A DNA stretch of 64,000 nucleotides from Nitrosopumilus sp. GTDB lineage: Archaea > Thermoproteota > Nitrososphaeria > Nitrososphaerales > Nitrosopumilaceae. Positions within the stretch are counted from its first letter, which is position 1. Every line of letters starts with the position of its first letter. Positions 13,287 through 32,584 of this stretch are shown piece by piece. Under the pieces are notes generated by a model. The model was given only the letters and a program-made list of their open reading frames with translations, did not search any database and had not been told where the DNA came from. Location of the stretch: contig OZ245040.1 of the NCBI GenBank assembly GCA_965224195.1, positions 544,001-608,000 on the forward strand, written 5' to 3'. The translations under genes were made by a program, and so were the position numbers.

Positions 13287-13452
13287 AATTAATCCGCCTC
13301 AATTTTAGCAAAAGCATAGATTTTGAAATTTCATTAGAAAATAATCTAATTTGTCTATCCATAGGATACACCTTTTTAGTAATCTAATAGGCTTTTTCAA
13401 TTTTTTATTAATTTCTTAATATGTATGATATTCCAAAATTAAATGACATCAT

Positions 13453-14133
13453 TTGAGAATTAGTGAAATTTTTGAATCAGTTCAAGGTGAAGGAACCAAT
13501 GCTGGAAAAGAATCTATTTTCATCCGTACTGCTTTATGTAATTTAAAATGCTCTTGGTGTGATACAAAGTACACTTGGGATTGGGATAATTTTGATTATA
13601 ATTCTGAAGTTCACGACATGACAATAGATGAAATCATACAAAAATTAAAAAACTTTACTGCAAAAAATATTGTAATTACTGGAGGTGAGCCTTTGATTCA
13701 ACAAGATGAATTGATATTATTGTTATCGTCATTACCAAAAAAATTCTTTATAGAGATTGAAACAAATGGAACAATTCTTCCTTTAGATAGACTAATTCCA
13801 TTAATTGATCAGTGGAATGTTTCGCCAAAAACATCAAATTCCAATAATCTTATTGAACAATGCGAAATAGGAAACTGTTATAAATTTTTTAAAAATCATA
13901 CAAAAACCTTTTTTAAATTTGTTGTAGAGTCTGAATCAGATATTTTAGAAATATCAAATATTATAGAAAAATATGAACTGGATAAATCTAAAATTCTTCT
14001 AATGCCTCAGGCTTTGACAAAAAATGATTTAATTTCAAAAGAATCCTTAATTCAAACTTTATGTAAAAAAAATAATTTTAGATATTCATCTAGACTACAC
14101 GTTATGAGATGGGGAAATGTTAGAGGACGTTAA
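13453..14133 (+). CDS. queE: 7-carboxy-7-deazaguanine synthase (radical SAM)
   Basis: SEIFESVQGEG, CNLKCSWCDT, TGGEP, IETNGT, VSPK, RLH motifs. Confidence 0.93.
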   Translation: MRISEIFESVQGEGTNAGKESIFIRTALCNLKCSWCDTKYTWDWDNFDYNSEVHDMTIDEIIQKLKNFTAKNIVITGGEPLIQQDELILLLSSLPKKFFIEIETNGTILPLDRLIPLIDQWNVSPKTSNSNNLIEQCEIGNCYKFFKNHTKTFFKFVVESESDILEISNIIEKYELDKSKILLMPQALTKNDLISKESLIQTLCKKNNFRYSSRLHVMRWGNVRGR

Positions 14134-14487
14134 TTATTTTGTAACTGAGCAATACGATGAACTTCCTTCAAAGAATTTTACGCTTGAAAGAGGTATTTTC
14201 CCCTCTAGATTCTCAAAAATCCATGCTGCAATATTTTCGGATGTGGGAAAATCAAACATTTTATCTAAATCATTATGATCTAATTGACCGATAACATTCC
14301 AACAGGTCTTTTTCATTTCAGAAAAATCAAGAAGCATATTTTCTTGATATGTATTTCCTTTTGGAACCACCCCTTCTACTTCAACAACTATTTTCGAAGT
14401 ATGTCCGTGTGGCTGCCCACATTTTGGATGTCCCTTTAAGGTATGTGCAAAATCAATTTCAAATTCTACACCTAGCTTTGTTTTCAT
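14134..14487 (-). CDS. queD: 6-carboxy-5,6,7,8-tetrahydropterin synthase
   Basis: AH...KCGQPHGH, LDH, PTSENIA and terminal Glu; T-fold PTPS-I signature. Confidence 0.92.
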   Translation of the reverse strand: MKTKLGVEFEIDFAHTLKGHPKCGQPHGHTSKIVVEVEGVVPKGNTYQENMLLDFSEMKKTCWNVIGQLDHNDLDKMFDFPTSENIAAWIFENLEGKIPLSSVKFFEGSSSYCSVTK

Positions 14488-14564
14488 AACATCACGGATT
14501 ATTCTAATCTATTTAGTAGTTTATTTACAGAAAAACTATTCAATGAAAATGATTATTTTAGATT

Positions 14565-15329
14565 ATGAAAATGAGTTCATGTAAAACATGTCCTTGTCCT
14601 TGTGGTTGTAAAGCATCATCTAGTACACTTGAAGAAATAGAGAAAGTGTTCGGGTGGAGGGGGAAGATAACTCAATCATATTGTAAAAAATGTAGGGGAA
14701 AACACAAACAAAATCAACCAAGTGAAACAATATCTCCAATTTATGAATTTATTCTTAAAGGAATTAATTTTGATTATCAAAATACTAGAGAATATTATTC
14801 AAAACTTCCCAAATATGATGAAATGGGACATCATCTTACTCATGAAATGAAAAATAAATTAACAAAAAAATATCTGCTTGATAAAAATAATGAATTTATA
14901 GAACATTTCTTAAAATTACTTGAGAAACCAGAAGCTAATATTGAAGAAAAATTATTTTTAAAATTCTTTAAAATGTATAATTTTCATACTAAAAAACCAG
15001 ATCATGAAAGTTTTTTTAATTTTATAATTTCATTAGGATCTAAAGAGATTGATCCTGAACAAGAATTAACTCCAAAAATGCAAACTTATGTAATTTTAAA
15101 AATTCATACAGTGATTACTAGTACATATATGAAAATTCTATCTGTAAAATTGAAAAATTCATCTGCATTCATTATTAGTTTTGTCAATGATATGAATCAA
15201 GATTTTATTAAAAATACTACTCAAATTCATATTTTAGATCGTGATATGATTAAATTTTTATTAAAAAACGAATTAATTTTGGAACCTCTGACTTTTTTAG
15301 AGATAAATCTACTTTTGGAAGTGTTTTAG
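14565..15329 (+). CDS. hypothetical protein with N-terminal Cys-rich zinc finger
   Basis: CKTCPCPCGC...FGWR...QSYCKKCR. Confidence 0.6.
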   Translation: MKMSSCKTCPCPCGCKASSSTLEEIEKVFGWRGKITQSYCKKCRGKHKQNQPSETISPIYEFILKGINFDYQNTREYYSKLPKYDEMGHHLTHEMKNKLTKKYLLDKNNEFIEHFLKLLEKPEANIEEKLFLKFFKMYNFHTKKPDHESFFNFIISLGSKEIDPEQELTPKMQTYVILKIHTVITSTYMKILSVKLKNSSAFIISFVNDMNQDFIKNTTQIHILDRDMIKFLLKNELILEPLTFLEINLLLEVF

Positions 15330-15491
15330 ATGATATCTGATATTTTTCTAATTAAAATACCAAACGGTGTATAGTTACATTAAATGAAATATTCATTTAT
15401 TTGATTTATTTCCAATGAAATTTTAGTCAAGAAATATATTTTATTTTTTGATACATAATGGTTAATTCCTTCAAATAACCTATTCAAATAA

Positions 15492-17783
15492 TTGTCAAAA
15501 AATAATGAAATAAGACACCTTGATATTAAAAAATTTACGAACGATTGGAATTCTGGAATGAGTTTTGTTGATTTATCTATAAAATATAATTTGGATTATA
15601 CTGGAAAAGCCAAAAGAATTGGGGAAAAATTAGGCTTGAAAAAACAAAAAAACCTAGACTTTTTTGAACGATTTCTCACAAACCCCAAAAAAACGGATAA
15701 ATTTATCTCAATGTATAATGACGACTCCATCAAAGTTAGAGAAATAACTAAACATTTTGATTTTACAGATAATGGGTATGTTTCAAAATTAGCAAAAAGA
15801 ATTGGAATTCCTGTAAGAGCAGGAGGATATGCAAGTCAAGGTAAATTTGATAAATCTGGGAATGAATTTTCCAAAATGTGGAATGAAAATATAGATAGTC
15901 AAGCAATAATGGAAAAATTGAATATAAGTAATGCCTCTTTACATACTTGGAGAGTTAAACTAGGCTTAAAACCTAGAACTCAAGGAAGAATTTTTCCTAA
16001 CGCAATTAAAAATAAAATTGAATTATTGTTACTAGAAAATTCAGGCGCATTAACATCTAAAGAACTAAAAAAATTACTAAATAAGGATATTCTCAATTTA
16101 ACAGATGCGTGCAAATCAATGAAATTTCAAAGACTGTCTTTGACTTTACATATAACTGGAAGGCGTTCTCGTCAGCCTACGGATTATTTTGGTGACAATA
16201 CTGGTCAAACTATAATATTTTTGAATAACATGTATGATAGTTTAATTCTCAAACTATCAAAAATATTGAGGGAAGGTAATATGTATAAAAATAATTTACT
16301 AAAAAAAGCAGTTTACAAATTCATGATTTCTCGTCTTGCAGAAAATGATATTAAAATTAAAAATAGAGAATCTCAACTTTTTCAAATTCTGTATAACAAA
16401 GAAAAACAAAATGAACTTGAATCTTTTATAAAAGTACAATTGAATAAATATTCAATTAAACAAAAACCCATAAAATCAATTTCAGAAATTAAATCAAATG
16501 ATCCTCTAGTTGATCAAATTATTGAAAATAAGCCAAAATCAATATTTTATGGACGTAAATTTGAATCAGAATTCATATTAAATGAACTAGATTCAGCCTA
16601 TCCAGATCAACAAAAAATACTTGTCCAAGAAATTTTTACACCTTTTAACTTTATTTGTACCTCTTTGAATGATGGATATTTTAATTTAAAAATTACTTCA
16701 AATGAATCATTTTTAATAAGATTCATGCTTCACCAACTGATCAATTCAACTACTCTTAACATATTTCACAGTAAATTAAATGGAAAAAAAGGAATAATAA
16801 TTAATTTTGAATTTATATCCGAATCAGTTCTTAAAACAATCCCTGAAAATATTCAGATTTTTAATAAAAATGATTTATTTTCATTATTAAATTCAGTTGA
16901 ATTTTTACCAATTAAACCCAATTCATTTGCAAAAATTATGTTTGGGGAAAACAAAGATGAGATTGTTTTTTGTAATGATGTTGATTTTAAAACAAATATT
17001 GCAGCAATCAGTGATTCAAATAAAAAAATAGACAATGTTTCGATAAAATTTTTGAAGCATATTAAATTACCAAAAGAAATTTCATTTTCAGATTATTTTA
17101 ATTTCATCAAAAAATTAGACAGAATATCTGTTAATGAAAATATTTCTTCCATGGATGAATGTATTGTAGATGTAACATCAATTAACACTGGATATTGGCC
17201 TATGATTGACTCTAAAGTGGATTCTAACCATACAAAAATTTTACTTCTTCATAATTCTTCTGATCAACGTATTGGTTATGATAACTATACTACTAGTACC
17301 GGATTTTTACGAAATGCTCTAATCAAATGTAATTGTTTATCATGGATTTCTCAAGAAAATCCTATTTTGTGTAAACATTCTGTTGCATTGTTATTTCACA
17401 TGTGGAAAGGAAACATTGCAAAATTTGATTGGCACATTGAAAGGAAAACAGTTGAAGACTTTTTAGATTATGTATCTTTCTTGATAAATTATTCGATTAA
17501 AATAGAGAATTTTTGGTTTCAAAAAATTGATCATGCAAAGGCAAATTGGGATTTAATTCATCATGCAATTTGTAATCTTATTGATGGTAAAATTTTCAAA
17601 ACCCCAAATTATGAGGAATCAGAAAAATCTGAATTGGAAAATTTAATGTTTGAATACAAAAATGAAAATAATAATTTGTTTAATTCTATGACTGAAATAC
17701 ATGCTGATCAAAGAAAAATGATCCGACAATCTTTGGATTATCAATTTAAAGAAAAAATGGAAGAATTAAAAAAATCATCATAA
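15492..17783 (+). CDS. multidomain protein: repeated HTHs and C-terminal SWIM zinc finger
   Basis: three HTH-like repeats ending KLGL/RIGI; CNC-x10-CKH SWIM motif. Confidence 0.6.
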   Translation: MSKNNEIRHLDIKKFTNDWNSGMSFVDLSIKYNLDYTGKAKRIGEKLGLKKQKNLDFFERFLTNPKKTDKFISMYNDDSIKVREITKHFDFTDNGYVSKLAKRIGIPVRAGGYASQGKFDKSGNEFSKMWNENIDSQAIMEKLNISNASLHTWRVKLGLKPRTQGRIFPNAIKNKIELLLLENSGALTSKELKKLLNKDILNLTDACKSMKFQRLSLTLHITGRRSRQPTDYFGDNTGQTIIFLNNMYDSLILKLSKILREGNMYKNNLLKKAVYKFMISRLAENDIKIKNRESQLFQILYNKEKQNELESFIKVQLNKYSIKQKPIKSISEIKSNDPLVDQIIENKPKSIFYGRKFESEFILNELDSAYPDQQKILVQEIFTPFNFICTSLNDGYFNLKITSNESFLIRFMLHQLINSTTLNIFHSKLNGKKGIIINFEFISESVLKTIPENIQIFNKNDLFSLLNSVEFLPIKPNSFAKIMFGENKDEIVFCNDVDFKTNIAAISDSNKKIDNVSIKFLKHIKLPKEISFSDYFNFIKKLDRISVNENISSMDECIVDVTSINTGYWPMIDSKVDSNHTKILLLHNSSDQRIGYDNYTTSTGFLRNALIKCNCLSWISQENPILCKHSVALLFHMWKGNIAKFDWHIERKTVEDFLDYVSFLINYSIKIENFWFQKIDHAKANWDLIHHAICNLIDGKIFKTPNYEESEKSELENLMFEYKNENNNLFNSMTEIHADQRKMIRQSLDYQFKEKMEELKKSS

Positions 17784-17806
17784 TCGGTAATTACACAAAA
17801 GGTTTT

Positions 17807-20323
17807 ATGCATCTAATTCATAATTTCATATCTATGCCGGTTGAAAAATACGGTTTAAAGTTAATTCCCTTTAAATCTCAAGGTTCAGAATCTGGAAAAT
17901 ATCCATTTGTTCCCTCTGAATCATTTAATAATTTAATATCTGAAATTCAAGAAATTCGTGAAGATAAAGACGCTGGCTCTATCATCTTTAGAGGCCCCCA
18001 AGGTAGTGGTAAAACTGCTACTAGGAATGGAATTTTAAATAATTTTTTACAACAAACCGATGTTGGAATAATTACCGTTAATCTTTCTTCACTTGAATTA
18101 AGAGATTTGACATGGTCAATAGCAAATAATGCCAAAAAACAGAATTTAATTGATGATAAATTTCTTAAAGAAATAGATTATGTTGAAGGGCAAAATATTG
18201 AAAGGCCCAGGTTATTAGAAATAATCATTTCAATTATAGAAAAAATTTTGTCAGTAAAGGAATTTGGTATTTTAATTATTGATGAATTTGATATTATTTC
18301 TCAACCTACTTTTCATGATACAGATAATCAAACAACTTTTCTTCAAAATATTACAAATTTTTTAAATTTGATCAGTGAATCTAAAATGGTACAAAAAAAA
18401 TCGTTTTGCACAATTCTTGCACAAACTGATAAAAGTTCTGAGGATTTTATAACATATGTCTCTAATAGACATAAACCACTTGCTTCTAGATTAAAACGTA
18501 GTGTTGATATAGAATATAATTTGGATGAAACAAAACAAATCATCTTGAACAGATTAGAATCTGAACAAATAGATGGATTTGTAAAACCTGATGGAAATGA
18601 ATTTTTTCCCTTAGATGAAAAAATAATAGAATTTCTTTTTATTGAAATTAATCAATTGACACTAAAGAAAAAAATGACTGCATTTAGAGATGTGGAACAA
18701 ATTTTACATAATTCAATTGTAAAATCTTTGGAAAAAAATTTACCAAAAGTGGATATTAATATTGTTATGGAGATCTTTAATCAGGAAAAAACAAAACTAT
18801 TTGAAATTAAACGAGAAGAACTTCGAATTAACAAAGAAACAATTATTGAGCTTGATAAATTACTCCTTGACAAGGATCACTCTGCAGCAAATAACTTGTA
18901 TCTTGATGGTATTAAAGATGGAATGACTGTTTGGGAATCACAATTATACAAAACTGTTGACTCTAATGGTGCAAGATCAAGATTAATTCCAGATAATGGG
19001 CACAGTTTATTCATTAATAGTATCAGGTTAGATCTTCAATCTAGTTCAAAACATCACAAGTCAATTTTGTGGTATGATGTTTCTAAATTTGAAAACAAAG
19101 AATTCACTGATAAGGATTTTAAAGAAATTAATTTATTTTTAGATGAAAACAAAGATGAAAGAAATGGATGCCAATTTTCAATTTTAACTATATTTTCAGA
19201 TACCCTATTAACAGATGAAATAAAATTAAAAAATGATCAAATTACTTCTATGGATGAAATCTTTATCTGTAACAATATTGTAAAAAAAGCAATCATTGGA
19301 ATAGCAATTTCTAACTCAGCAACTAAGGATGTATCGAATCCTTCAGATGATCGTGAGCAATTTAAGCCTAATTGGAATACACATCTACATAGTGTATGTA
19401 CTGATAAATTAGGAGAAACTCTTCACGATCTTGATAAAGAATTTTCAGATAAAAATAAAGTTCTTGTTCAAATTCTCTTTACAAAATCTGCTATTGGGGA
19501 AACATTCCAAAAAAAGGTTGATCTAAAAAACTTGGCAAGAGGAATTTCTAATTTGAATATTCAAGAAAACAATGTTAATGAAATCATACTATTAGGATTT
19601 TGTAATGAAGAACTACAACCTACCATTCCACGAAATCTGGTTTCACTTAAAAATTTAATCGAATTAGGAAAAACAAGTGATGAAATTTTAACATTTTTCT
19701 CTAAACCTTTTACATTTGGAGCTGCAAAATTATTAAATATTATTGATGATAATGGGAAATTAGTTAATTTTGAGAATCTAAAAAAGGAAATCGAGGATGA
19801 TTTAATTCAAAAAATGAAAGATGTTTTACCCGAGGATACTACAACTTTATCAGTTAATCAAACAATAATTAAATTACTTGTAGACGCATTTGAAAAAATC
19901 GATGAAATAACTAATTATTTAAAAAAAATAATTGTGTTGAGCTATATTCGTGAACAATCTGAAAAATCTTTGGAAGATTTATCTGTAGATTCAACATTCT
20001 CTGAATCTGGTGCTTCCACCACTGAATCTGGTGCTTCCACCACTGAATCTGGTGCTTCCACCACTGAATCTGGTGCTTCCACCACTGAATCTGGTGCTGC
20101 TGATGTTCGCGATACCGCTGTAAATAATGAAAAATCTGAAGAAATAACTCTCGACATGCTTCTAGATGTATGTAATGATGTTCTAAAGGATGGTAAATTA
20201 ACACTCAATGAATTACGCAAAAGAATTAGTATGAAACCACGTTTTGAAGACGAGACTAAATGGGTTACAAAAATTTATGCTTTAATTCGTAGTAGTAAAA
20301 TATCTCTCAGTAAAGGAAATTAA
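17807..20323 (+). CDS. P-loop AAA+ ATPase (DpdH/Cdc6-like) with repeat linker and short C-terminal domain
   Basis: Walker A GPQGSGKT, Walker B IIDEFD, Arg finger PLASRL; real start possibly 17834. Confidence 0.8.
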   Translation: MHLIHNFISMPVEKYGLKLIPFKSQGSESGKYPFVPSESFNNLISEIQEIREDKDAGSIIFRGPQGSGKTATRNGILNNFLQQTDVGIITVNLSSLELRDLTWSIANNAKKQNLIDDKFLKEIDYVEGQNIERPRLLEIIISIIEKILSVKEFGILIIDEFDIISQPTFHDTDNQTTFLQNITNFLNLISESKMVQKKSFCTILAQTDKSSEDFITYVSNRHKPLASRLKRSVDIEYNLDETKQIILNRLESEQIDGFVKPDGNEFFPLDEKIIEFLFIEINQLTLKKKMTAFRDVEQILHNSIVKSLEKNLPKVDINIVMEIFNQEKTKLFEIKREELRINKETIIELDKLLLDKDHSAANNLYLDGIKDGMTVWESQLYKTVDSNGARSRLIPDNGHSLFINSIRLDLQSSSKHHKSILWYDVSKFENKEFTDKDFKEINLFLDENKDERNGCQFSILTIFSDTLLTDEIKLKNDQITSMDEIFICNNIVKKAIIGIAISNSATKDVSNPSDDREQFKPNWNTHLHSVCTDKLGETLHDLDKEFSDKNKVLVQILFTKSAIGETFQKKVDLKNLARGISNLNIQENNVNEIILLGFCNEELQPTIPRNLVSLKNLIELGKTSDEILTFFSKPFTFGAAKLLNIIDDNGKLVNFENLKKEIEDDLIQKMKDVLPEDTTTLSVNQTIIKLLVDAFEKIDEITNYLKKIIVLSYIREQSEKSLEDLSVDSTFSESGASTTESGASTTESGASTTESGASTTESGAADVRDTAVNNEKSEEITLDMLLDVCNDVLKDGKLTLNELRKRISMKPRFEDETKWVTKIYALIRSSKISLSKGN
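20001..20098 (+). repeat. 21-bp coding tandem repeat, 4 full copies plus 14 bp (ESGASTT)
   Basis: CTGAATCTGGTGCTTCCACCA identical at 20001, 20022, 20043, 20064; partial at 20085. Confidence 0.97.
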
Positions 20324-20324
20324 A

Positions 20325-21323
20325 ATGCAACTTAATAAAAAAATTATCAAAGCTCCAGCTGTAGATAATCTTAATATTCTTAAAAAAATTATTAAAAGTC
20401 TAGAGTATACCCCTATCCCATTTAGTTATATTGATGAAAGGAATCTTGAATCGCTAGAAAATAAGAAAAAAATTTCTCACCAAGTCCATGAAAGTATTAA
20501 TGAATGGAAAGATAGTCAAGAGATTTCTCATGCAAAAGGATTTTTACAATCTATTGTTTCATTATTAAGATCATTGAATATTATTTCAAATGTAAAAATT
20601 AAAAAAGAATTTTTAGATACACCACTTGGTTTTTCTGGACCAATGCTTAATACATTTTTAACAAAAAGTATTGATGCAGTTATGTTGACAAAAATTGGAT
20701 ATAGTCTTTTAGATTTATTGGAAAAAAATGATATTCAATCTAGAAATACATATGATAATATATTATTCTGGAGATTTTTACATAGTAACATAACACATAA
20801 CTTTCAACGACTTTTTGAAAATTCTGATACTTATACAAAAGGAATTGAAAAAACACTAGAGAAATTTGAAACAGATACTCGTACAAGAGGTATTTTCTTA
20901 AGTTGGATAAATTATTTTGATTTAAAAGGAATTGATGAGACTCATAGTAATTCAATTATTTTGAGCAAAAAAAAAGTTATTAAAAAAATTATTTCATCCA
21001 CTATACTTGAATTAAACACTTTAAAAATTGACATATATTCAATTGAAATACTTTCAAACCATCTTTCTCAACAACTTGATTTGTCTAATACTATCTGTGA
21101 CTTCTTATCTATTTTTGAGATTATTTTAAAACACACAAACTTATCAGATGAACAAAAGAAATCTATATCTGGAACAACATCCTCAAGAATCAGTTCACAC
21201 TTGCCAAATTTTCCTAAAATAAACATGTTAAAAATTCATAGTAGTATACCTATGGATCAAATTTTAGAAAATACTACAGACTCTGAATTTAATTCAGTAT
21301 TGAATTTTGGTGATAATGAGTGA
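20325..21323 (+). CDS. putative tandem winged-helix DNA-binding protein
   Basis: operonic (1-bp gap upstream, GTGA overlap downstream); LRSLNII...MLTKIG...RTRGIFLSW pattern. Confidence 0.5.
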   Translation: MQLNKKIIKAPAVDNLNILKKIIKSLEYTPIPFSYIDERNLESLENKKKISHQVHESINEWKDSQEISHAKGFLQSIVSLLRSLNIISNVKIKKEFLDTPLGFSGPMLNTFLTKSIDAVMLTKIGYSLLDLLEKNDIQSRNTYDNILFWRFLHSNITHNFQRLFENSDTYTKGIEKTLEKFETDTRTRGIFLSWINYFDLKGIDETHSNSIILSKKKVIKKIISSTILELNTLKIDIYSIEILSNHLSQQLDLSNTICDFLSIFEIILKHTNLSDEQKKSISGTTSSRISSHLPNFPKINMLKIHSSIPMDQILENTTDSEFNSVLNFGDNE

Positions 21324-24010
21324 ATCCCAAGGATATTGTAAAAGATGAAATTTATCGTATAGAAAATTCATTAATTCAACAAAAAATATTTCTTGATAAC
21401 AACAATCAACCAATGTTTATCACGAATGTGCAGATTGCGAAAGGAACTGGATTATCTGAAACAGAAGTCATAGATGTCATAACAGAATTAGCCCAAAATG
21501 AGAAAAATGAATTTATTATTTTTGATAATACTCTCGGTATTTCGGCAGATGAAAATATTCAGTTTTTTGTTAGAACAAGAATATATCATATAATATGGAC
21601 ATTGTATAGATCTGCCAGTAGAACCAGGAGTAATCCGCCTAAATTTAATATTGGTGATTATCAATATTTACGACATGTTAAACGTCGTCCAAAACAATCT
21701 GAAAATTTAGAAGATGTATTTAATGATGAGGAAATCAAAAAGAATTTTGACTATCCAAAAAATGACTTGTTCAATAAGGTTATTGCCCATATTAAAATAA
21801 ATACTAATTTCAAAAAAATTAGTAACTTTCAAAAAAAATCAACTGTTAAAATATTAAAAAATCTTGAATTAAGAAAAAAGCCAAGAGGTATTGTCTTGGT
21901 TGCTGGCACAGGTGCTGGTAAATCATTTGCATACCAATTTCCACTCTTACTTTGGATACTAAATAAAAAATTTAAAAAATTTGATGAATTCCGTAAAGGA
22001 TACATTAAGGAATCTGATTTACATGTTAATTGTACTGGATTACTGATTTTTCCAAGAAACGCTTTAGCACAAGATCAATTTGAATCCATATCCTATCTAA
22101 TTGATATTATTAATGAAGAAATTTGCAAATTCCCTGATGCAGTAGGAAGAAAATTCCTTACAATTAAAAAACCACTTCCTGACTTTCATAGTAATATTAG
22201 TGGTGATTTGAAAAACAAATATGGAAATAACTCTGAAAAAGGTTATCCTGATTTAATTATCACTCATCCCAAATCATTAGAACGTAGACTTATCAATCCA
22301 GATTGTAGTTTTGTGTATAAACAAGGAATAGATTGTGTATTATATGATGAAGTACACTTATGGGATGGAATAGAAGGGGCAGAAATTGCTTCATTAAATG
22401 CACGATTACAAAATTTATTCCAAGAAAAGTCAAATCCGCCGTTATTTGTTGGTATGTCTGCAACAATTGATCAACCTGAATGGCATTGCCAAAAATTATT
22501 TTCTTTGTTGACTGAAAAGAAACCTGAATCCATAATACAAGGAGACGATGATGATACAGTGCCTTTTTCAATTGAACATCATTTAATTCTTAAACCTAGA
22601 AGTGGTCGACCCCCAATAGGTGTTGCAATAGATACAACATCATGCTTGATACATAATCGTAGAAATGGATTATCATTATCACATGATGATGATAATTTCC
22701 CCTCACACATAGATCGAGAAAATAAAGACAAAAGTCTCACTTTTATAGATTCTTTAAATCAAACTGCAAAATTTGCTAACAAATTAAATAATTTTGAATA
22801 TTTTTGGGATGGTCATGCTCAAATAGCACGAACTTCAGGTTCCCAAAGACCATACAGATCATATCTTTATCACTATAGACCCGAGCAACGTCCACCTAAA
22901 GGAGTTCCAAACAATAAATGGACCGCCAATCATGATTGTAATGACTGTGTAAATCGAACTAGTCCAGAAATTTTTACATGTCCAAGTTATGCTCGCGGTG
23001 AATGTTGGTATTATTCTTCAGATGATGCAAATCAATTTGCAAATACCCCTTATGGAAATTGGAAACAATTAGTTCGAGGAGACAGACTAACAGTTCCAAG
23101 AGACAATATTCGTTCAATACGAGTTTCAAGTTTAGAAAACAAAAAAATTAAAAATAAATATGATTATTTTTTGTTTAAAGATAACATATGGATACCTGAT
23201 GGTAAAGTTCCTGCTTCTGTAGATATGGTTTCTGATATTGATAATATCGTGTCAACTTCCACTCTAGAAGTAGGGGTTGACTTCAAAAAGATCAAAGAAA
23301 TTATACAAGTTGGAGACATTCGATCTCCTTCATCATATAAACAAAAAGCTGGTAGAGGAGCTCGTGAAGGAAATAGTGAGGATGGGTTATTTGTAATGAC
23401 TGTTATTAATGACTCTTCCTTAGCATATTATCATTTTAAACACTTTAGTAGATTAGTGAAATCTAGTCTAGATCCACTAAAACTTGAAACAACAAATCCC
23501 AATATCATAAGATCTAATTGCTTCTTTTCAATTTTTGATTTTATGGCATTAAATAAAATTAATTTATTTAAAATTGTACGTTTAGAGGCTACAGAAATAG
23601 ATTTGGAATATGAAAAAGCAATAAAATTACTTGATGATTCTAAATTGGAAAAATATGTTGCAAGATTTCTTGCTAAATTTAACAAATCAGAAAGTAGTAT
23701 TATCCAAAAAACCATTAAAGATGTACGAGATTTTCTAGAAATACTATCAACAAAAAGAGAAGTAATTATTAATGATGTGAAAATACAACATACTCTACAC
23801 GAATGGTTGATACAATCTGTTAATAGTCTAAATACTCTACAAGAAGTTAAAAAACAATTAGGTATTGATACACTTCAAAAACAAGAAGATGCAATAGGCG
23901 ATATCACAAAGTATATGGATGAGTTAGAAACATCCTATCAAAAACAATTTCCTGATGATGATTTAATTACAAAAAAATTACATGAATTGAGGAGAGAGAT
24001 ATTTGAGTAA
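21320..24010 (+). CDS. SF2 DEAD/DEAH-box helicase (DpdJ/DrmA-like)
   Basis: AGTGAGKS, FPRNALAQDQ, DEVH, SAT, STSTLEVGVD, QKAGRGAR; Cys-rich insertion. Confidence 0.9.
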   Translation: MNPKDIVKDEIYRIENSLIQQKIFLDNNNQPMFITNVQIAKGTGLSETEVIDVITELAQNEKNEFIIFDNTLGISADENIQFFVRTRIYHIIWTLYRSASRTRSNPPKFNIGDYQYLRHVKRRPKQSENLEDVFNDEEIKKNFDYPKNDLFNKVIAHIKINTNFKKISNFQKKSTVKILKNLELRKKPRGIVLVAGTGAGKSFAYQFPLLLWILNKKFKKFDEFRKGYIKESDLHVNCTGLLIFPRNALAQDQFESISYLIDIINEEICKFPDAVGRKFLTIKKPLPDFHSNISGDLKNKYGNNSEKGYPDLIITHPKSLERRLINPDCSFVYKQGIDCVLYDEVHLWDGIEGAEIASLNARLQNLFQEKSNPPLFVGMSATIDQPEWHCQKLFSLLTEKKPESIIQGDDDDTVPFSIEHHLILKPRSGRPPIGVAIDTTSCLIHNRRNGLSLSHDDDNFPSHIDRENKDKSLTFIDSLNQTAKFANKLNNFEYFWDGHAQIARTSGSQRPYRSYLYHYRPEQRPPKGVPNNKWTANHDCNDCVNRTSPEIFTCPSYARGECWYYSSDDANQFANTPYGNWKQLVRGDRLTVPRDNIRSIRVSSLENKKIKNKYDYFLFKDNIWIPDGKVPASVDMVSDIDNIVSTSTLEVGVDFKKIKEIIQVGDIRSPSSYKQKAGRGAREGNSEDGLFVMTVINDSSLAYYHFKHFSRLVKSSLDPLKLETTNPNIIRSNCFFSIFDFMALNKINLFKIVRLEATEIDLEYEKAIKLLDDSKLEKYVARFLAKFNKSESSIIQKTIKDVRDFLEILSTKREVIINDVKIQHTLHEWLIQSVNSLNTLQEVKKQLGIDTLQKQEDAIGDITKYMDELETSYQKQFPDDDLITKKLHELRREIFE

Positions 24011-26237
24011 AATAGATGAAATAGAAAAAATTCTAGAAAATAGGTTAAAAGAAGTAGAATTTAAAAAAAGCAACTTGATTGTTAATCCATTCACTAATCT
24101 TAAAAACTCCTTAAAAGAATTTGAAGAAAGTAAAAAAATTTCTAATAAAAGTGGGATTGATATTTTCAGATTGGAATTATATTTATCTGAATTATATGAA
24201 GACTTGAACAATAGAAAGGGAAATCAAAAATCCGATGAAACATCGTTTAATGTCTTCACAAAATTACCACTAAAACCTTATGCCAAATCATCCATCGGTT
24301 CTACGGTTACGTTATCTAGAGGGACAAATTATTCTGAGGAGGTATTGCCATCAAAAACTATTTTTACACAACTTTTACCGGGTCAAGTAACACATAGGTG
24401 GGATTTCCATTCACAATGGAGAGTTCCATGTGGAAAATATTCTGAAGATTTTATTAGTCATCTTAAAGGAATTCATAAAATATCTTCAACTCCATTTATC
24501 CAACATGAAGGTAAAAATGTCCACACATTAGAAAAAATAAATGTTATGACGTTACAAGGGGTTACCAATAACTCATATGTAGATGAGAATGGTGAAGAAC
24601 AGAAAAGACAAGGAGGAATTCCTGTTTGTCCAGAATGTTTGTCAATAAATATTTCTGGGGGCAGAGTGGCAGAACAGTGTATTCATGTAAGAGATGGTAA
24701 CAGTAATCCTATAGGACGTTCCTCATTATATGCATCTCCAATTTTAGAAAATATTGAAATTAGTGGTGAGAGAGAAATATCAAAACCAAATCATTTCTCT
24801 TTCCCGTTAAATGAAATATTTGAAAAAATAGAGTTTTTAGAAAATTGTCAAATCATTACTGTTGCTACAGGTTTTAGTAGAGAAATAGGAGGTGTCTCGA
24901 TACAAGTTCAATATGATCCATATATCGGATATAAGACAGATACAAACGGATTATTATTTGTAGTAAAAGAGATTCCAGGTGATTTTGTTAAACAAGTATT
25001 AAATGATGATTTTCTTGTGAGGGATGTCATAATAGATATTCTACAAGATAAAATTCTTCATATTTTAAATAATTCGAATAAGAGTTCTTTTGAATTAGAA
25101 GTATGGCTTTCTGGACTAATCAAAGCGTTAAGACTTGATTCAATTTCGACCACCTTTGATTATTTGAACACACTTAATCAATTACATTCTGCTTCATTTG
25201 ATGATGATTTTTTAAGTTGTGTTCAAACTGAATTAAGTTATTATGAATACGAACAATTTGGCATAGATCCAACAAGAATTGCAGTAATGTCTAACGAAAT
25301 AAAAAATATCAGTATTTCAGAAGATGATTTAAAATTAAAAATTAAAAGATTGCTTAAAAATTCATTAACTTACTTAATACATCAAACAGGATTGGTTACA
25401 TCAGGTTCAACTGATCAAGATATTGGATTTATATATCCAAAAGAAAATACAAACGAAATTTTACTTTTTGATGATATGTCTGGTGGAAATGGTGCTTCAA
25501 AATTAATTAATGATTATTTGGTTGGTGTAAGCTCTTCATATTCTCCAAAGCATGGAGCACGACCCAAATATTTTCAAGAAACATTTTTTGAATTATTACA
25601 GCCATGTCCACAAGGTACTGCTGATAGAAGTTTTTTCCAAGATTTGGTTAAAATCTTTACAAATTTTTCTAACAATAATTTAATTAGTAAAAAATTTGAA
25701 GAAATTCAAGAACAACAAAATGCTTCACAAAATGAATTTGCGCAAATAAAAACTTCTGGTATTCAAAATATGTTTCCTCATTCAATTGGTAAAAGAGGAT
25801 TAATACAAAATGGAATAACAAACACAACAGAAAGTAAGAAAATTCAAGAAATTGCAAACATCTGTATCCACGGTTGTTTTGAATGTGGTCTTTTAAAGGG
25901 GAATTATTCTGGAATAAAAGGTCCTAAACTTGAGAAATTTTATGTTAGTAAATATTTACTTGATAAATACTTCAAATTTGTTACACAAAAAATTCGAATT
26001 GATATTGATACCAATACATCTGAAATAGAAAAAATTTTCAAAGAACACAAAATGATAATTATTTCACAAAAAATTGGAAATGCTAACAACATCTATCAAG
26101 TGATGTCAAAAATGAATTCATTAATTGGTGAAGAATTCGATAAAAAATTGGTGAAATTTTCAGGACTGTGGTTTGATTGTCCAATTTCAAATTCTCCAGA
26201 GGTTGAATTATCTATTTTATTGAGCGTGATTAAATGA
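24003..26237 (+). CDS. DUF1998/MrfA-like Zn-binding helicase partner (DrmB- or DpdJ C-terminus-like)
   Basis: LFDDMSGGNGAS followed by PCP...ICIHGCFEC; overlaps helicase stop. Confidence 0.75.
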   Translation: MSKIDEIEKILENRLKEVEFKKSNLIVNPFTNLKNSLKEFEESKKISNKSGIDIFRLELYLSELYEDLNNRKGNQKSDETSFNVFTKLPLKPYAKSSIGSTVTLSRGTNYSEEVLPSKTIFTQLLPGQVTHRWDFHSQWRVPCGKYSEDFISHLKGIHKISSTPFIQHEGKNVHTLEKINVMTLQGVTNNSYVDENGEEQKRQGGIPVCPECLSINISGGRVAEQCIHVRDGNSNPIGRSSLYASPILENIEISGEREISKPNHFSFPLNEIFEKIEFLENCQIITVATGFSREIGGVSIQVQYDPYIGYKTDTNGLLFVVKEIPGDFVKQVLNDDFLVRDVIIDILQDKILHILNNSNKSSFELEVWLSGLIKALRLDSISTTFDYLNTLNQLHSASFDDDFLSCVQTELSYYEYEQFGIDPTRIAVMSNEIKNISISEDDLKLKIKRLLKNSLTYLIHQTGLVTSGSTDQDIGFIYPKENTNEILLFDDMSGGNGASKLINDYLVGVSSSYSPKHGARPKYFQETFFELLQPCPQGTADRSFFQDLVKIFTNFSNNNLISKKFEEIQEQQNASQNEFAQIKTSGIQNMFPHSIGKRGLIQNGITNTTESKKIQEIANICIHGCFECGLLKGNYSGIKGPKLEKFYVSKYLLDKYFKFVTQKIRIDIDTNTSEIEKIFKEHKMIIISQKIGNANNIYQVMSKMNSLIGEEFDKKLVKFSGLWFDCPISNSPEVELSILLSVIK

Positions 26238-26788
26238 CACATGTTGATGAACTAAATTATGCAATGGTGGATTTTGATATATTAGCTTCAGAATTAATAA
26301 AATCTATTTTTAATAAAAATGATGATAATGAAGTTATAATAATTTCACCGTGGATGGTAGATTATGCATTACCAATGACCTGGCCCTCTTTTAGTAGTAA
26401 TTTTATTAATATTACAGATATGCAAACAACAAGTGATATTCTAAGATTACTATTGCAGAATGGTGTTTTAGTAACGATCATGTCACATTCAACTGCACAA
26501 TTAGAAAAAGATGGATGGGGTAATGTTGCTATTAGAAATGCAGTAGATTTTTCTAATAAAATAAAAGATGATGGTGGAAAAATAATTCATAATCAAATAA
26601 ATCACGGTAAGCTAACATATACTAGTGAACATGCATTAGCTGGTTCTGGTAATTATACAAATAAGGGTAGGAATCCAATATTGCAAAATAACATAGGTGA
26701 ATTAATTGTTAAAAGTAAAGATGAAAAAAGTCATGGATTAAAACATAGATGGGCTTTAGATAGACTCAAAGAAGGAAAATCCATATAA
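26234..26788 (+). CDS. phospholipase D-family nuclease (DpdK/DrmC-like)
   Basis: IISPW, HGK (HKD Asp replaced) and GSGNYT; ATGA overlap. Confidence 0.8.
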   Translation: MTHVDELNYAMVDFDILASELIKSIFNKNDDNEVIIISPWMVDYALPMTWPSFSSNFINITDMQTTSDILRLLLQNGVLVTIMSHSTAQLEKDGWGNVAIRNAVDFSNKIKDDGGKIIHNQINHGKLTYTSEHALAGSGNYTNKGRNPILQNNIGELIVKSKDEKSHGLKHRWALDRLKEGKSI

Positions 26789-28051
26789 TTATTTCCCAAA
26801 ATAATACAAACCTAATTTTCTATCAATAGAGTTACACCATGTAGCCAATCCCAATAATAACAAAACATCTTCTTTGTCTTTCATTGAATATTTTTTTGAT
26901 TTTTTCAAATGAATTACAATATCCTCAAAGTTTTGAGGAGTATTTGACAATAGTTTTAACATGTACTTGTATTCTGGAATTTTTTCTTTTAATTTTTTAT
27001 TCAACTTTGTTTTAGCTGATCTTTTCTCCAATGATTTTAAGAACTCTTTACCTTCATTACTAAGATAGATAACACCATCACGTTTAGTTGTAAATTTTAA
27101 CAATTCTCCTAATTTTGTATAACTGCCATTTTCTGTTTCATATCTGGAGTGTAGTAGATTTTTTATGGCCATTCCATCTTTAACTGATTCTAGGAATTTG
27201 GGGAATTTTGTAACTGATATTTGAGGAGGTGTGAAATTACCTGTTACAGGACTTGCTTTTTTGTATTCACTGTTTTTTTTAGCGCCTTCTTCTGCTGCAC
27301 TAAATCCCTTATTTGAAATAATGAATGTAAAAGTACCTCGTCCTCTGTATGATAAATCCACTCTCAGAGGTAAATCATCACTTAAACCTAGTTTGACTTC
27401 TCCGCACTGAGTAACCATTTCAGTGACTGTTTTCAAATAATCCAATATGGTCCAAGTTTTCACATCTTTTTTTGGTATTTTATTTTTAAAAGACTCAAAC
27501 ACTTGACCTGAAAGATCTATTGTTTTGTGATAAGAAAATCCACCTTCTTCAGAACCTACAACAAATTTCCCATCCTCGATTCCAAAGAATATCTCTCTAG
27601 ACACTGATGATGCTTCATTAATTATCTCCAAGAATTCTTTGGATGGAATTGTGATTTCAGCATCATAATCTAAATTATTTGGTTCGGGTAGGTTGAATTC
27701 TTCATCCTCCAACCATTCTAATTCATAACGTGTTTTTTCATTATTTATAAAATTTAATGCAATGTTTTTTTTCCGAATATCAAGATTCAGTTTTTTTTCT
27801 TTTTTAATTTTTGTAATTACTTGTTTGAGCTTACCAATTTCAGCCTCTCTTGAAAATTTTTCAGAATCCCAGTTAAATCCATTAAAAAAGGTAGGTGATA
27901 ATTTAATATCCACATAACAAAAATCGTGAGGATCTATACTTCTAATCCTTACTCCGTTTTTACTAATATCAAATCTGGCTACATCTGTAAATCTTGTAAT
28001 GCCACGAAAAATGGCTTTGAATAATGCTAAATCCTCTATTCTTAATTCCAT
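26789..28051 (-). CDS. PCNA (sliding clamp) paralogue fused to a ~165-aa winged-helix-like domain
   Basis: first ~250 aa follow PCNA (FKAIF...VRIRSIDPHDFCYVDIKL...F, LPEPNNLDYDAEITI, VKLGLSDDLPLRVD...TFII); extra C-terminal domain PQ...YLSNEGKEFL...LATW. Confidence 0.82.
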   Translation of the reverse strand: MELRIEDLALFKAIFRGITRFTDVARFDISKNGVRIRSIDPHDFCYVDIKLSPTFFNGFNWDSEKFSREAEIGKLKQVITKIKKEKKLNLDIRKKNIALNFINNEKTRYELEWLEDEEFNLPEPNNLDYDAEITIPSKEFLEIINEASSVSREIFFGIEDGKFVVGSEEGGFSYHKTIDLSGQVFESFKNKIPKKDVKTWTILDYLKTVTEMVTQCGEVKLGLSDDLPLRVDLSYRGRGTFTFIISNKGFSAAEEGAKKNSEYKKASPVTGNFTPPQISVTKFPKFLESVKDGMAIKNLLHSRYETENGSYTKLGELLKFTTKRDGVIYLSNEGKEFLKSLEKRSAKTKLNKKLKEKIPEYKYMLKLLSNTPQNFEDIVIHLKKSKKYSMKDKEDVLLLLGLATWCNSIDRKLGLYYFGK

Positions 28052-29101
28052 TTATTTTCTACCAAATAATATGTTTGAAATACTATTGTATTTTTTCTTT
28101 AATTTAGCGTATTTCCATAAATAATCTAGAGAAGATGTTTTGTAAATTTCATTTAGATATTCCTCATATGCTTCTTGTCCTTTTTTGATTAGTTTTTTTG
28201 CTATTTTTATTTCATTTTTCATTACATGATCATTATGAATTGCTCTTGCTTTCCAGTCATCCCACAATGCATCTTGATTCATCCTACAAATTGGACAATC
28301 ACATTCTTGGAGTAATTTCATATCTTTTCTTTTTAATGAAACACCACCTCCAAATTTGGCGGTGTTATTCCCAACATATCTCTCAGCCGTACCTGGCAAT
28401 ACAATTTGACCAAATGCTGCTTTTCTTCTATATCCTGATGAATCTGTACTTTCTATTCCTAAATAATATCCTAAATGCAATGAAATTGGCGATGAACCTA
28501 AACCCATAATGTGAACATTGTAATCAGTATTTTTTTTTACACTTTCTACAGTATATGATAACATATCAATCAAATTTTTATTTGGTTGTCTATCTCCAAA
28601 AAATCCCGTATAGTTTGTAAATTCAGGATTAACAATACTTCCGACTGCCAAATAATCTGAATCTCCATATTTTTGAATCCATTTCAAATTTTTCATTAAT
28701 GATTTTTTATTCCAAGCATGAATTGAAGGGACTAGTTTTCCATCCAAATTTGTAGATGATTGCCAATATCGAATATTTTTTGCAGTGTCCTTCCATCTTT
28801 TTTGCATTGTTACCGCAGACATTCCATTTTTGAATGGATAGTCAAATGGAATTGTTTTATCAGGTTCTAATGTCTCTTGAATATCGATAATTTTTTCTAA
28901 ATCTAATTCCATATCTTGCATGTTTGCAGTATATGCGCCATTATCCAAAAATAATTCGCCCACCCTGTATGGTAGTTTTGGTTCATCTTTTCTGTAATAA
29001 TTAATAGCAGAATCCATGACGAAGTCTTTTCTGCGATCTGTTTTTACTGGGGCCTGTGGTTGCTCACCCATCCATAATAAGATCTCCTCCGTTCTGGACA
29101 T
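28052..29101 (-). CDS. tRNA-guanine transglycosylase-family protein lacking PUA domain (DpdA-like)
   Basis: LFLDNGAY, PFDYP, PSIH, YLAVGS, HIMGLG, GIESTDSS, Zn site CDCPIC...HN; only 349 aa. Confidence 0.85.
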   Translation of the reverse strand: MSRTEEILLWMGEQPQAPVKTDRRKDFVMDSAINYYRKDEPKLPYRVGELFLDNGAYTANMQDMELDLEKIIDIQETLEPDKTIPFDYPFKNGMSAVTMQKRWKDTAKNIRYWQSSTNLDGKLVPSIHAWNKKSLMKNLKWIQKYGDSDYLAVGSIVNPEFTNYTGFFGDRQPNKNLIDMLSYTVESVKKNTDYNVHIMGLGSSPISLHLGYYLGIESTDSSGYRRKAAFGQIVLPGTAERYVGNNTAKFGGGVSLKRKDMKLLQECDCPICRMNQDALWDDWKARAIHNDHVMKNEIKIAKKLIKKGQEAYEEYLNEIYKTSSLDYLWKYAKLKKKYNSISNILFGRK

Positions 29102-29129
29102 ACCAAAAAGGTATGAGTATCAGTATTTT

Positions 29130-30126
29130 TACTTTGTCGAACAAATAACAATCTGATCAACTTTATTTCATAACAATAGCTTTGGATCTCACATTCTGAC
29201 CATTCTCATGGTTAACTGGAATCAATACAATGAGAAACTAGTCAGAAGAGGCGAGATCATAATGTCATTTGATGCTATTGATAACTGGCATAAAGAATTA
29301 GAGGTCATGAATCACAACAAAAGAGGTAGAAAGTTTGACTATCCTGATTCATTCATGAAATTATTGGGTTATGCCAGAGTATATTTTGGATTACCATTCA
29401 GACAAACAGAAGGAATGATACGTGCATATTGTAATAGAATTCCAGCAGTTCCTGATTTCACATCAATCCACAAGAGAATAAACAAGCTTGACATCAAAAT
29501 TGATGATTCCATTGGAGATAATAATGAAATCATTTTAGCAATTGACAGCACAGGAATCAAGGTTGCAAACAGGGGCGAATGGATGAGACAGAAATGGCAC
29601 ATGAGGAGAGGGTTTCTAAAAATCCATGTTGGTGCCGATGCCAGAACCAAGAAAATAGTTTCACTCAAAATAACAGATGATTCATCCCATGATGCTGCAC
29701 ATCTGCCAGAACTGGTACAGCAGGCATCACAGAAAGGAAAGGAAATGTAATCAAGGTTCTAGCTGATGGCGCATATGATTCAGAAAATAATTTCTCATAT
29801 CTATATCACAATACAAATGCACTGCCTGCAATCAAAGTTAGAAAGACATCATCCATCAAAACAAAATGTTATCCGAGAAAGAAATCAGTCTTGGCTCAAA
29901 TGTATAATTTGGATTTGTGGAAGCGCAGCGTCAGCTATGGGGACAGGTGGATTGCAGAGTGTGTGTTTTCAACATTCAAAAGGATGCTTGGTGAGTATGT
30001 CATGGCTCACAAAAGAAAATACATGATAAAGGAATTGGAATTAAAAGTCGAGCTGTACAATCTGCTTGCAGGTGCTTGAGGGAATGAAATTAGAAACTAG
30101 TTAGAAATGATTTGTTCGACAGAGTA
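29130..30126 (+). mobile_element. IS5-family insertion sequence (997 bp)
   Basis: 17-bp TIRs TACTTTGTCGAACAAAT / ATTTGTTCGACAGAGTA (1 mismatch); 8-bp TSD AGTATTTT at 29122-29129 and 30127-30134. Confidence 0.92.
29208..30079 (+). pseudogene. IS5-family DDE transposase, frameshifted
   Basis: YNEKLVRRG, IDSTG, then LADGAYD and RWIAECVFS in a second frame; apparent 5-bp GGAAA duplication near 29736-29745. Confidence 0.88.
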
Positions 30127-32033: not shown

Positions 32034-32584
32034 TATTGACTCAATTCCCCATTTTTCGGGATTGTTGTGTTTAAACATTGAATCTGATTTTTTAAATTGT
32101 ATATTGTCTATTGTGAGTGTAGAGTATGTTGTTTTTAACAAATGAACAACCCCGAATGTCCAAAATACGATTGCAGTTTTTGTGAAAATATTTGGAACGC
32201 TAGGGTAACTAGCAAGAGAATATGGTTCGCCTCTTACAATTTCAATCAATATTAGAAATACTGATATCCATAAACATACCAGCGACACAAAAATATTTTC
32301 TCGCTTATTTCGTAATGATTCTCTCTTTATAGCAATTGGAATTATTAATGAAAATAATGAATTGGCTATCACAAAAATTGTTAAAATTCTAGCAATTCCT
32401 GCTTGATCTAAGGACGTGTTTGATAAATTTGGAATACTCCAATAAATCAACATTCCTGTTATTGTGAAGAGAATAAATGGAATAAACCAAGATTTGTATA
32501 TTTTATAATGTATTATCTTTTTTGTAAATAATACTATTTCTTTTTTCATAAGTTAACAATCTCATCTTTATTAATCATAATAAT

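Follow-up and report, generated by a model that had tools for sequence, protein, structure and literature searches.

The question raised by the stretch of DNA analysed here (64,000 nt of a Nitrosopumilus sp. genome, contig OZ245040.1, positions 544,001 to 608,000; hereafter the window) is whether the genes at window positions 13453–29101 belong to one system that marks DNA with a modified base and destroys DNA without the mark. We think that they probably do, and we read them as a single, horizontally acquired Dpd-like 7-deazaguanine restriction-modification (R-M) system with a dedicated clamp, in which a PCNA ring is fused to a double winged-helix (wH) tail. This reading draws on what was observed in the analysis: which genes are present, how their products fold, the conservation of catalytic residues, paralogy, location in an island and the conserved gene neighbourhoods. 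The original prediction, made from the letters of the window, was a self/non-self defence marked by a deazaguanine base; every test that could be computed (presence of a second tRNA-guanine transglycosylase [TGT] gene, co-occurrence of the genes elsewhere) supports it, and we regard it as likely to be correct.

All the genes that had been named were found in the map of open reading frames (ORFs). The ORFs from 12444 to 30788 were compared with the Pfam, PADLOC and NCBIfam model libraries, and the block reads as follows:

13453–14133, + strand: QueE-like radical-SAM enzyme, 7-carboxy-7-deazaguanine synthase type (Radical_SAM, 52.8 bits)
14134–14487, − strand: QueD-like 6-carboxytetrahydropterin synthase (PTPS, PF01242, 78.5 bits against a cut-off of 22.4)
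14565–15329, + strand: o254, with a Cys-rich N-terminus (no match in Pfam, PADLOC or NCBIfam)
15492–17783, + strand: o763, with a weak SWIM zinc-finger match (E 0.0057, below cut-off)
17807–20323, + strand: AAA_22 (ORC/Cdc6-like) ATPase, 838 aa (AAA_22, 30.7 bits)
20325–21323, + strand: o332, conserved partner of the ATPase (found in 24 loci)
21320–24010, + strand: superfamily 2 (SF2) DEAD/DEAH helicase, 896 aa, DpdJ/DrmA-like (Pfam DEAD and Helicase_C)
24003–26237, + strand: o744, probable DrmB/MrfA-type (DUF1998/MZB-like) Zn-binding protein (invariant Cys, Foldseek)
26234–26788, + strand: single-HKD PLD-family nuclease, DpdK/DrmC-like (HKD motif; PADLOC DpdK, 1.6e-4)
26789–28051, − strand: second PCNA, 420 aa, with a disordered basic linker and two tandem winged-helix-like units (Pfam; AlphaFold 2 [AF2] model)
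28052–29101, − strand: TGT-fold guanine transglycosylase, 349 aa, DpdA-like (PF01702, 55.3 bits against 26.3)

The five genes from the ATPase to the PLD nuclease form the tightly coupled operon that had been proposed, with spacings of +1, −4, −8 and −4 nt, and o763 ends 23 nt upstream of the ATPase gene. The PCNA-fusion gene abuts the stop codon of the PLD gene and the TGT-like gene abuts the start of the PCNA gene; both lie on the − strand and face the + strand operon, which is the convergent pair originally described.

The TGT-fold protein

Is the island TGT a tRNA enzyme? Sequence comparison suggests that it is not, and the contrary view is retained below only at a very low probability. Residues D53, D220, C267, C269, C272 and H289 are invariant in 20 sequences; the catalytic aspartates align with D95 and D249 of the archaeosine TGT (arcTGT), and the CxCxxC...H zinc site aligns with the arcTGT Zn site. 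The protein stops just after the catalytic domain, has none of the C-terminal tRNA-binding domains and finishes with a conserved YxxISxxLF tail. The missing PUA domain is not diagnostic, because thaumarchaeal arcTGTs are also without one (available part of PMC6790972). Against the TgtA model TIGR00432, whose cut-off is 350 bits, the island protein scores only 33.3 bits, whereas the other TGT of the genome, a 509-aa arcTGT, reaches 487 bits and is a bona fide TgtA. The island protein is thus neither the only TGT of the genome nor grouped with arcTGT, in keeping with the role in DNA first proposed for it.

The nearest detectable relative of the TGT is viral. A search of 50,697 phage and virus records matched nothing but the TGT-like genes of the Sulfolobus viruses STSV1, STSV2 and STSV4 (STSV2 gene: tblastn 3e-14, 29% identity over 204 aa). 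The family profile aligns with STSV2_15 (hhalign probability 99.55, E 1.9e-23, 237 columns) better than with the host arcTGT (97.2, E 3.9e-11), and the segment RKAAxGxxxLPGxGERYVG is common to the family and STSV2_15; the STSV2 protein is without the CxCxxC zinc motif in the alignment. According to the available part of PMC10516641, the STSV2 protein is named DpdA, its neighbour STSV2_16 is ArcS2 (a DUF5591-only protein) and dCDG, the carboxy form of the deazaguanine mark, was measured in STSV2 DNA at 149 per million nucleotides. A scan of viral_contigs gave 11 loci, of which one holds a close relative (50% identity across 100 aa, where the contig stops) and the others are 23–29% identical; the family is therefore mainly cellular.

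Its cellular distribution is sporadic. G000 is counted in the samples of both the taxonomic family and the phylum. The family sample of 151 genomes yielded 2 with a member (G000 and another, at 31% identity) and the phylum sample of 401 yielded 4; the 23 genomes of the genus yielded none. The homologues come from Nitrosopumilaceae, Nitrosocaldaceae, Conexivisphaerales, Bathyarchaeia, Methanomethylicia/Verstraetearchaeota, Desulfurococcales, Freyarchaeota and Promethearchaeota, and one carries the label of a WOR-3 bacterium. Within the same taxonomic family, locus L024 (G041:C1:1524514-1525344) encodes a 347-aa TGT-like ORF that is 31% identical to the window TGT and possibly represents another DNA-type TGT clade.

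The PCNA fusion and its link to the TGT

Pfam recognizes both halves of a clamp in the 420-aa protein (PCNA_N, 28.4 against 20.3 bits; PCNA_C, 25.2 against 23 bits) and leaves about 170 residues beyond them. The NCBIfam clamp models give 99 bits against a cut-off of 284, so that the protein is a divergent paralogue; a canonical 257-aa PCNA is encoded elsewhere in the genome. In the AF2 model (pLDDT 80.4), residues 1–245 adopt the PCNA fold (Foldseek: 2ix2_B, E 2e-19, TMt 0.87) and 248–276 are disordered. The C-terminal part, 280–420, is modelled as two H-H-H-E-E units (280–330 and 359–418) connected by two helices (332–357), which look like tandem winged-helix domains.

For comparison among genomes, a set of 9 loci from species genomes and the best 80 of 111 metagenome relatives was assembled; ORFs were called, the window proteins were searched with jackhmmer and neighbouring genes were clustered de novo. 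Loci are numbered with L and genomes with G. Near-duplicates (L007/L084 and eleven other pairs) were collapsed, which left 77 non-redundant loci for neighbourhood counts. Among the 56 of these with at least 800 nt downstream of the TGT, a PCNA ORF directly follows in 50, usually within a few bases. The TGTs themselves differ with the type of clamp. Of 52 TGTs whose partner is a PCNA-wH, 49 end in a tail of the form ...[KR]KYxRISxxLF (counted by eye, with near-duplicates kept); the ISxxLF-type tail was seen in none of 16 paired with a short PCNA, where the tail is different, and in 1 of 8 without a clustered PCNA, and that one (L041) does in fact have a PCNA-wH. It is suggestive that the tail tracks pairing with PCNA-wH, although related sequences have both traits and the observations are not independent.

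Two Promethearchaeota loci of the Loki type (L011 and L012) carry a DUF5591–TGT pair beside HerA, with no adjacent PCNA and no ISxxLF in the TGT. They represent a clamp-less variant of the family.

Conserved neighbourhoods

The co-occurrence elsewhere that the original prediction called for was observed, and the TGT neighbourhood is conserved across Nitrososphaeria, Bathyarchaeia, Asgard archaea and other lineages, in different arrangements. For 32 loci, 8 kb or more of sequence is available downstream of the TGT; of these, 18 have the helicase and o744 (the PLD gene usually being next), 11 have a HerA module, which also includes NurA and a large ATPase, and 3 have neither. Three gene orders were distinguished: (i) type A, TGT-PCNAwH-AAA-o332-helicase-o744-PLD, usually collinear, with a convergent form in the window, L005, L030, L037 and L068; (ii) type B1, TGT-PCNAwH-298-aa protein-~1195-aa ATPase-NurA-HerA; and (iii) type B2, (QueC)-TGT-short PCNA-DUF5591-HerA-~1300-aa protein-NurA. 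No relation of the helicase and o744 families to the ~1300-aa and ~1195-aa proteins of the HerA loci was seen by hhalign (probability 0.2–7%).

Genes of deazaguanine metabolism are found in some of these neighbourhoods. A DUF5591 protein of the ArcS2 type, with a PCxxxKPY motif and aligned to STSV2 ArcS2, is present in 17 of the 77 loci; 6 have QueC, 3 have the transporter QueT, and 22 have at least one of the three nearby.

The putative effector operon

The AAA ATPase was found in 26 loci and is a candidate sensor or clamp loader. Its Atlas leads are Orc1-like, AAA_22 and BrxC_BrxD clusters, which serve as leads only, and its N-terminal domain is homologous to the ~1195-aa protein of type B1 loci (hhalign probability 96%, E 4.8e-9). 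For its partner o332, a winged-helix label was not confirmed, as no Pfam family and no significant PDB sequence-profile match was obtained; the Atlas leads are weak (e.g. FokI recognition domain, 0.88, recognition score 1961). The original prediction had also seen a winged-helix signature common to o332 and the tail of the PCNA fusion. This found no support: hhalign gave a probability of 5% for the pair. Compared with the 298-aa protein of the HerA-type loci, the PCNA tail gave 79% and o332 28%.

The helicase, found in 23 loci, matches PADLOC DpdJ (1.8e-31, covering only parts of the 1487-position model) and DrmA (1.1e-9, partial), and scores 102 bits against the NCBIfam DpdJ cut-off of 800. 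In the PLD protein, H124, K126, S138 and N140 (H-x-K...S-x-N) are invariant in 12 sequences.

The nature of o744 was less obvious. It has seven invariant cysteines (C209, C212, C226, C535, C621, C625 and C628), and the protein itself matched nothing in Pfam (including PF09369) or PADLOC (including DrmB), nor was anything significant found in the PDB sequence-profile search. The top two Foldseek matches of its AF2 model (pLDDT 76.9) are 7s9v_B (E 4.2e-5), the DrmB subunit of the DISARM DrmAB complex, and 6znp_A (E 3.7e-3), the DUF1998 helicase MrfA, both with low TM-scores (0.18–0.29). A profile search yielded 245 homologues among 1.84 billion representatives; from the 150 of these matches that were listed, 22 were chosen, mostly long ones, so that the shares are not those of a random sample: 13 have DEAD, 10 Helicase_C, 4 PLDc_2 and 4 PF09369 (MZB, the former DUF1998). 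Calling o744 'DUF1998-like', as had been done, thus appears reasonable in view of the structural matches to DrmB and MrfA and of the PF09369 and helicase domains among its homologues. Among the matches listed, the o744 family is often the C-terminal half of proteins of ~1,550–2,150 aa (P0145, P0157, P0171-P0176 and others); these giants, with DEAD and sometimes PLD domains, look like fused forms of the helicase–o744–PLD trio.

Precursor genes and genomic context

The first two genes of the block are extra copies of genes that the genome already has. A housekeeping-type QueE, 35% identical to the island QueE, is encoded at C1:117289 beside QueC, and the genome has another PTPS gene outside the island. 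The housekeeping-type QueE was the sole type detected in the same-genus relatives (12 of 12). The four best NCBIfam matches of the island queE product are all QueE, at 82–118 bits against cut-offs of 200–300 (best, 118 against 260), and the queD product gives 76 bits against a cut-off of 89 for TIGR03367, having passed Pfam PTPS. We label o254 a probable lineage-specific accessory gene. Homologues of o763 number only 11, all at least 52% identical and none named.

The same eleven-gene block is present in G171, the Nitrosopumilus metagenome-assembled genome behind L005 (C1:126850-155157; L128, L005 and L129), with identities of 79% for queE, 85% for queD, 63% for o254, 57% for o763 and 45–87% for AAA through TGT. 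Since G171 keeps queE and queD with the block, the precursor genes appear to travel with the system in this lineage. As in the window, the G171 block lies close to leuS (66% identical), although in the opposite orientation with respect to that gene; possibly, the surroundings of leuS are a hot spot for integration.

In the window, the block lies in a composite island:

~11850–38600: genomic island of ~26.7 kb between leuS and a nitroreductase gene

The end of leuS (~11840) is directly joined to ~38600 in 3 of 3 same-genus genomes (G013, G162 and G159; tblastx), and positions 12000–38500 gave no tblastx match in any of these three. The GC content is 0.26–0.31 at 12–28 kb against 0.33–0.36 at 6–12 kb, and two insertion sequence (IS) elements lie within the island; no tRNA gene was found between 11 and 40 kb. 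The IS-containing island next to leuS that had been described is therefore borne out, and horizontal acquisition of the gene block is, as part of the reading given above, most likely.

Proposed mechanism

In the scheme that we favour, the QueD- and QueE-like enzymes of the island would raise the supply of 7-carboxy-7-deazaguanine (CDG), which the host QueC could turn into preQ0. The 349-aa TGT-fold enzyme would swap guanine in double-stranded DNA for a deazaguanine base, working with the PCNA ring from the abutting gene, whose tandem wH tail would bind DNA or a partner. The clamp would replace the ParB-like ATPase DpdB that bacterial DpdA requires; it is the obvious candidate for a substitute because bacterial DpdA needs DpdB (available part of PMC10164549) and neither DpdB nor DpdC was seen among the ORFs scanned. 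The AAA_22 ATPase and o332 would serve as a sensor or clamp loader, and the DrmA/DpdJ-like helicase, o744 and the PLD nuclease would degrade DNA without the mark. In other lineages, QueC, QueT and ArcS2 would feed or elaborate the base, and the motor–nuclease sets would be interchangeable, each destroying unmarked DNA. The parts of this scheme that we infer are DNA as the substrate, the identity of the base, dependence on the clamp, the role of the ATPase and restriction activity.

A bolder version can be put forward tentatively; taken as a package, we judge it somewhat more likely to fail than to hold. A DNA guanine transglycosylase would depend obligately on the private PCNA ring, as a subunit for processivity or targeting, and the ORC-like ATPase would load the ring. 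It would follow that (i) this is the first clamp-dependent base-exchange epigenetic mark, (ii) no 7-deazaguanine mark precedes it in the DNA of cellular archaea, (iii) the mark in this lineage could be the carboxy form dCDG, because the island supplies only QueD and QueE, and (iv) one writer pair serves several restriction modules that can replace one another, in Thermoproteota as well as in Asgard archaea.

Evidence against and alternative explanations

A number of observations weigh against a Dpd-like R-M system. The island TGT matched neither NF041059 (E ≤ 0.01) nor PADLOC DpdA (≤ 0.1); STSV2 DpdA likewise fails NF041059, and the DpdA model therefore does not cover archaeal-type DpdA. The only PDB sequence match of the TGT is arcTGT (E 2.4e-4). 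Both QueE and QueD fall under the NCBIfam equivalog cut-offs, and queE, queD, o254 and o763 stand beside the system only in the window and G171 and in the flanks of none of the other 89 loci. No deazaguanine gene is nearby in 55 of the 77 loci, many of which are on short contigs. Six loci (L009, L011, L012, L013, L085 and L102) have a TGT without an adjacent PCNA despite room for one, and three long loci (L009, L090 and L102) have neither effector set. The predicted complex of PCNA-wH with the TGT is a weak pass: its score was 0.54 (best of 3 controls, 0.00), with at least 63% of contacts agreeing between runs and partner pLDDT of at least 79, and no interface was reported. When the tool was calibrated, 58 out of 80 solved complexes passed the mark, as did 2 out of 110 mismatched pairs, and scores of at most 0.60 were those of only 7 of the 80 solved complexes and of both passing mismatches. 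PCNA, HerA and NurA are also DNA-repair proteins. Finally, the writer side may be impaired or silent in this genome, because an IS5-family element lies in the promoter region of the TGT gene and a conserved neighbour gene is split by another IS (both described below).

Of the other explanations, the one that survives best, though we consider it unlikely, makes the TGT–PCNA pair an effector: the clamp would ride replicating foreign DNA while the enzyme exchanges or removes guanines or excises modified bases of the invader, and the nucleases would finish the work. Coupling to a clamp would indeed target replicating DNA, the 55 loci without a precursor gene nearby fit such a role, and Dag1 and Dag2, which have other folds, attack deazaguanine-modified phage DNA (available part of bioRxiv 10.1101/2025.10.29.685425). 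However, the recurring neighbours that produce, bring in or modify the base (QueC, QueT and DUF5591, with queD and queE in the window) suit a deazaguanine-inserting enzyme; the nearest characterized relative is a virus's own DNA-modifying DpdA; and a modification pair with interchangeable nuclease sets is an R-M-like architecture.

Slightly less probable again is a base-exchange module coupled to replication or repair and unconnected with defence, in which PCNA would bring the TGT to forks or lesions and the helicase and PLD nuclease, or HerA and NurA, would be repair partners. PCNA, HerA and NurA (identified by Pfam matches) are classic archaeal replication and repair proteins, and the TGT–PCNA pair is tightly coupled. 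Against this stand the sporadic distribution (4/401 in the phylum, 0/23 in the genus), the low-GC island with its IS elements, PADLOC matches to defence helicases and DpdK, the interchangeability of the modules, and the housekeeping PCNA and arcTGT encoded elsewhere in the genome.

That the gene encodes a second tRNA or RNA transglycosylase, beside a helicase operon by an accident of island assembly, is highly improbable: membership of PF01702, the conserved catalytic residues and the undiagnostic absence of PUA (available part of PMC6790972) would allow it, but the neighbourhood is conserved in different arrangements across Nitrososphaeria, Bathyarchaeia, Asgard and other archaea, an enzyme acting on tRNA would have no use for a PCNA partner, and the TIGR00432 score is 33 bits against 350 while the host copy passes.

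Relation to known systems

How does the proposed Dpd-like system compare with those already described? The Dpd system proper is dpdA-K of Salmonella Montevideo, whose DpdA requires the DpdB ATPase (PMC10164549 for both, PMC5699537 for the gene set; available parts). As there, a TGT-fold paralogue shares a genomic island with genes of the preQ0 pathway, a helicase and a PLD nuclease, the window helicase and PLD being partial PADLOC matches to DpdJ and DpdK, and self DNA would be marked by 7-deazaguanine. Unlike in Dpd, the TGT matches no DpdA model, the helicase reaches 102 bits against the DpdJ cut-off of 800, there is neither DpdB (ParB-like ATPase) nor DpdC (DUF328), their place being taken by o332, an AAA ATPase of ORC-like type and the dedicated PCNA-wH clamp, and the hosts are archaea.

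The DpdA and ArcS2 of STSV1/STSV2 (PMC10516641, available part) are the second point of comparison: the STSV2 protein is the nearest detectable relative of the window TGT, the viral DUF5591 partner recurs beside the cellular TGT in the 17 loci noted above, and the dCDG of STSV2 DNA may be set beside an island that encodes only the steps up to CDG. The viral genes differ in being anti-restriction genes without PCNA or nuclease modules; the STSV2 protein is without CxCxxC and the window is without a DUF5591 gene.

DISARM consists of the DrmA helicase, the DUF1998 protein DrmB and the PLD protein DrmC with a methyltransferase. The window has separate helicase, DUF1998-like and PLD genes in the same order, DrmB being the best structural match of o744 and the helicase a partial match to PADLOC DrmA (1.1e-9), in line with the DISARM-like split of helicase and DUF1998 noted at the outset. 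No methyltransferase, DpdB or DpdC model from the three libraries matched any ORF scanned between 12444 and 30788, again as first read. In contrast to DISARM, no DrmMI/DrmMII methyltransferase, DrmD or DrmE was seen among these ORFs; o744 and PLD match no Drm model, and the proposed mark would be base exchange rather than methylation.

BREX-related capture (BRC) with a TGT (PMC12839542, available part) is likewise a non-Dpd defence in which the TGT is predicted to mark self; it has an ORC/Cdc6-like ATPase, wHTH proteins and HerA, and it is also without DpdB and DpdC. It is built on PglZ, DUF6079, STAND NTPase, DUF4007 and GNAT, none of which was matched here, and PCNA is not mentioned for BRC in the available part of that paper. 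PMC10853773, as far as its available text goes, contains no mention of PCNA, TGT or NurA. No description of a TGT–PCNA system was found in the literature searched, supplementary tables (which possibly list archaeal TGT/DpdA homologues) being outside the search; that the architecture was not one already described is thus upheld within these limits. On balance of the sequence evidence, the system is probably best classed as an archaeal R-M system of the deazaguanine type, linked to a clamp and with an effector arm resembling that of DISARM.

7-Deazaguanines in DNA have been reported for bacteria (the Dpd system) and viruses (PMC10164549, PMC5699537 and PMC10516641, available parts). If our reading is right, deazaguanine DNA epigenetics would extend to the third domain, including abundant marine ammonia oxidizers and Asgard archaea; there would be a new way to drive base exchange, with a dedicated sliding clamp instead of the DpdB ATPase; and PCNA would turn out to help in telling self from non-self. 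Our reading can be put to a direct test, given cultivable relatives, a two-gene writer pair and an existing mass-spectrometric nucleoside assay.

Other genes and elements of the island

Besides the system, the composite island contains the two IS elements and unrelated cargo. The following lie upstream of the TGT gene:

29130–30127, + strand: IS5-family element (inverted repeats 29129–29146 and 30110–30127)
30249–32438, − strand: gene of ~394 aa with no known family, cut into two ORFs by the second IS (by comparison with its intact L037 homologue)
32585–32986, − strand: nucleoside 2-deoxyribosyltransferase-like protein (PF05014, 30.6 bits)

The IS5 element is bounded on both sides by the direct repeat AGTATTTT (whole site, 29122–30135) and is inserted 21–28 nt ahead of the start codon of the TGT gene. 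The ORFs of its transposase, 29208–29750 and 29766–30026, are in the same frame and interrupted by an in-frame TAA at 29748–29750. The duplicated target retains an A/T-rich, TATA-like stretch, and all further upstream sequence has been shifted ~1 kb away. The second IS is ~1.07 kb long, with a DDE_Tnp_4 transposase at 31022–31945 (Pfam). Residues 4–142 of the intact 394-aa homologue (L037:3531-4715) align with 32438–32031 and residues 141–392 with 30962–30249.

Homologues of the deoxyribosyltransferase-like gene adjoin TGT–PCNA at L037:4712-5131 and L008:12438-12860, i.e. at three distant loci including the window. This gene may be an accessory of the modification side, salvaging or releasing free base for the transglycosylase.

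The extra cargo comprises a PIN-like ORF, the deoxyribosyltransferase-like gene, a PIN/Mut7-C and Aca2-like pair and a sugar dehydrogenase. The last is a 514-aa glucose/sorbosone dehydrogenase ORF (36742–38286) whose C-terminal ~125 aa are a multi-copy domain, with 7–18 matches per genome in same-genus relatives; it was for this reason dropped as a synteny anchor. At 34023–35239, a 113-aa PIN/Mut7-C-like ORF adjoins a 287-aa ORF with a weak Aca2/YdiL-like match, a possible toxin–antitoxin or regulator pair, and the 287-aa ORF has a homologue at L005:154-972.

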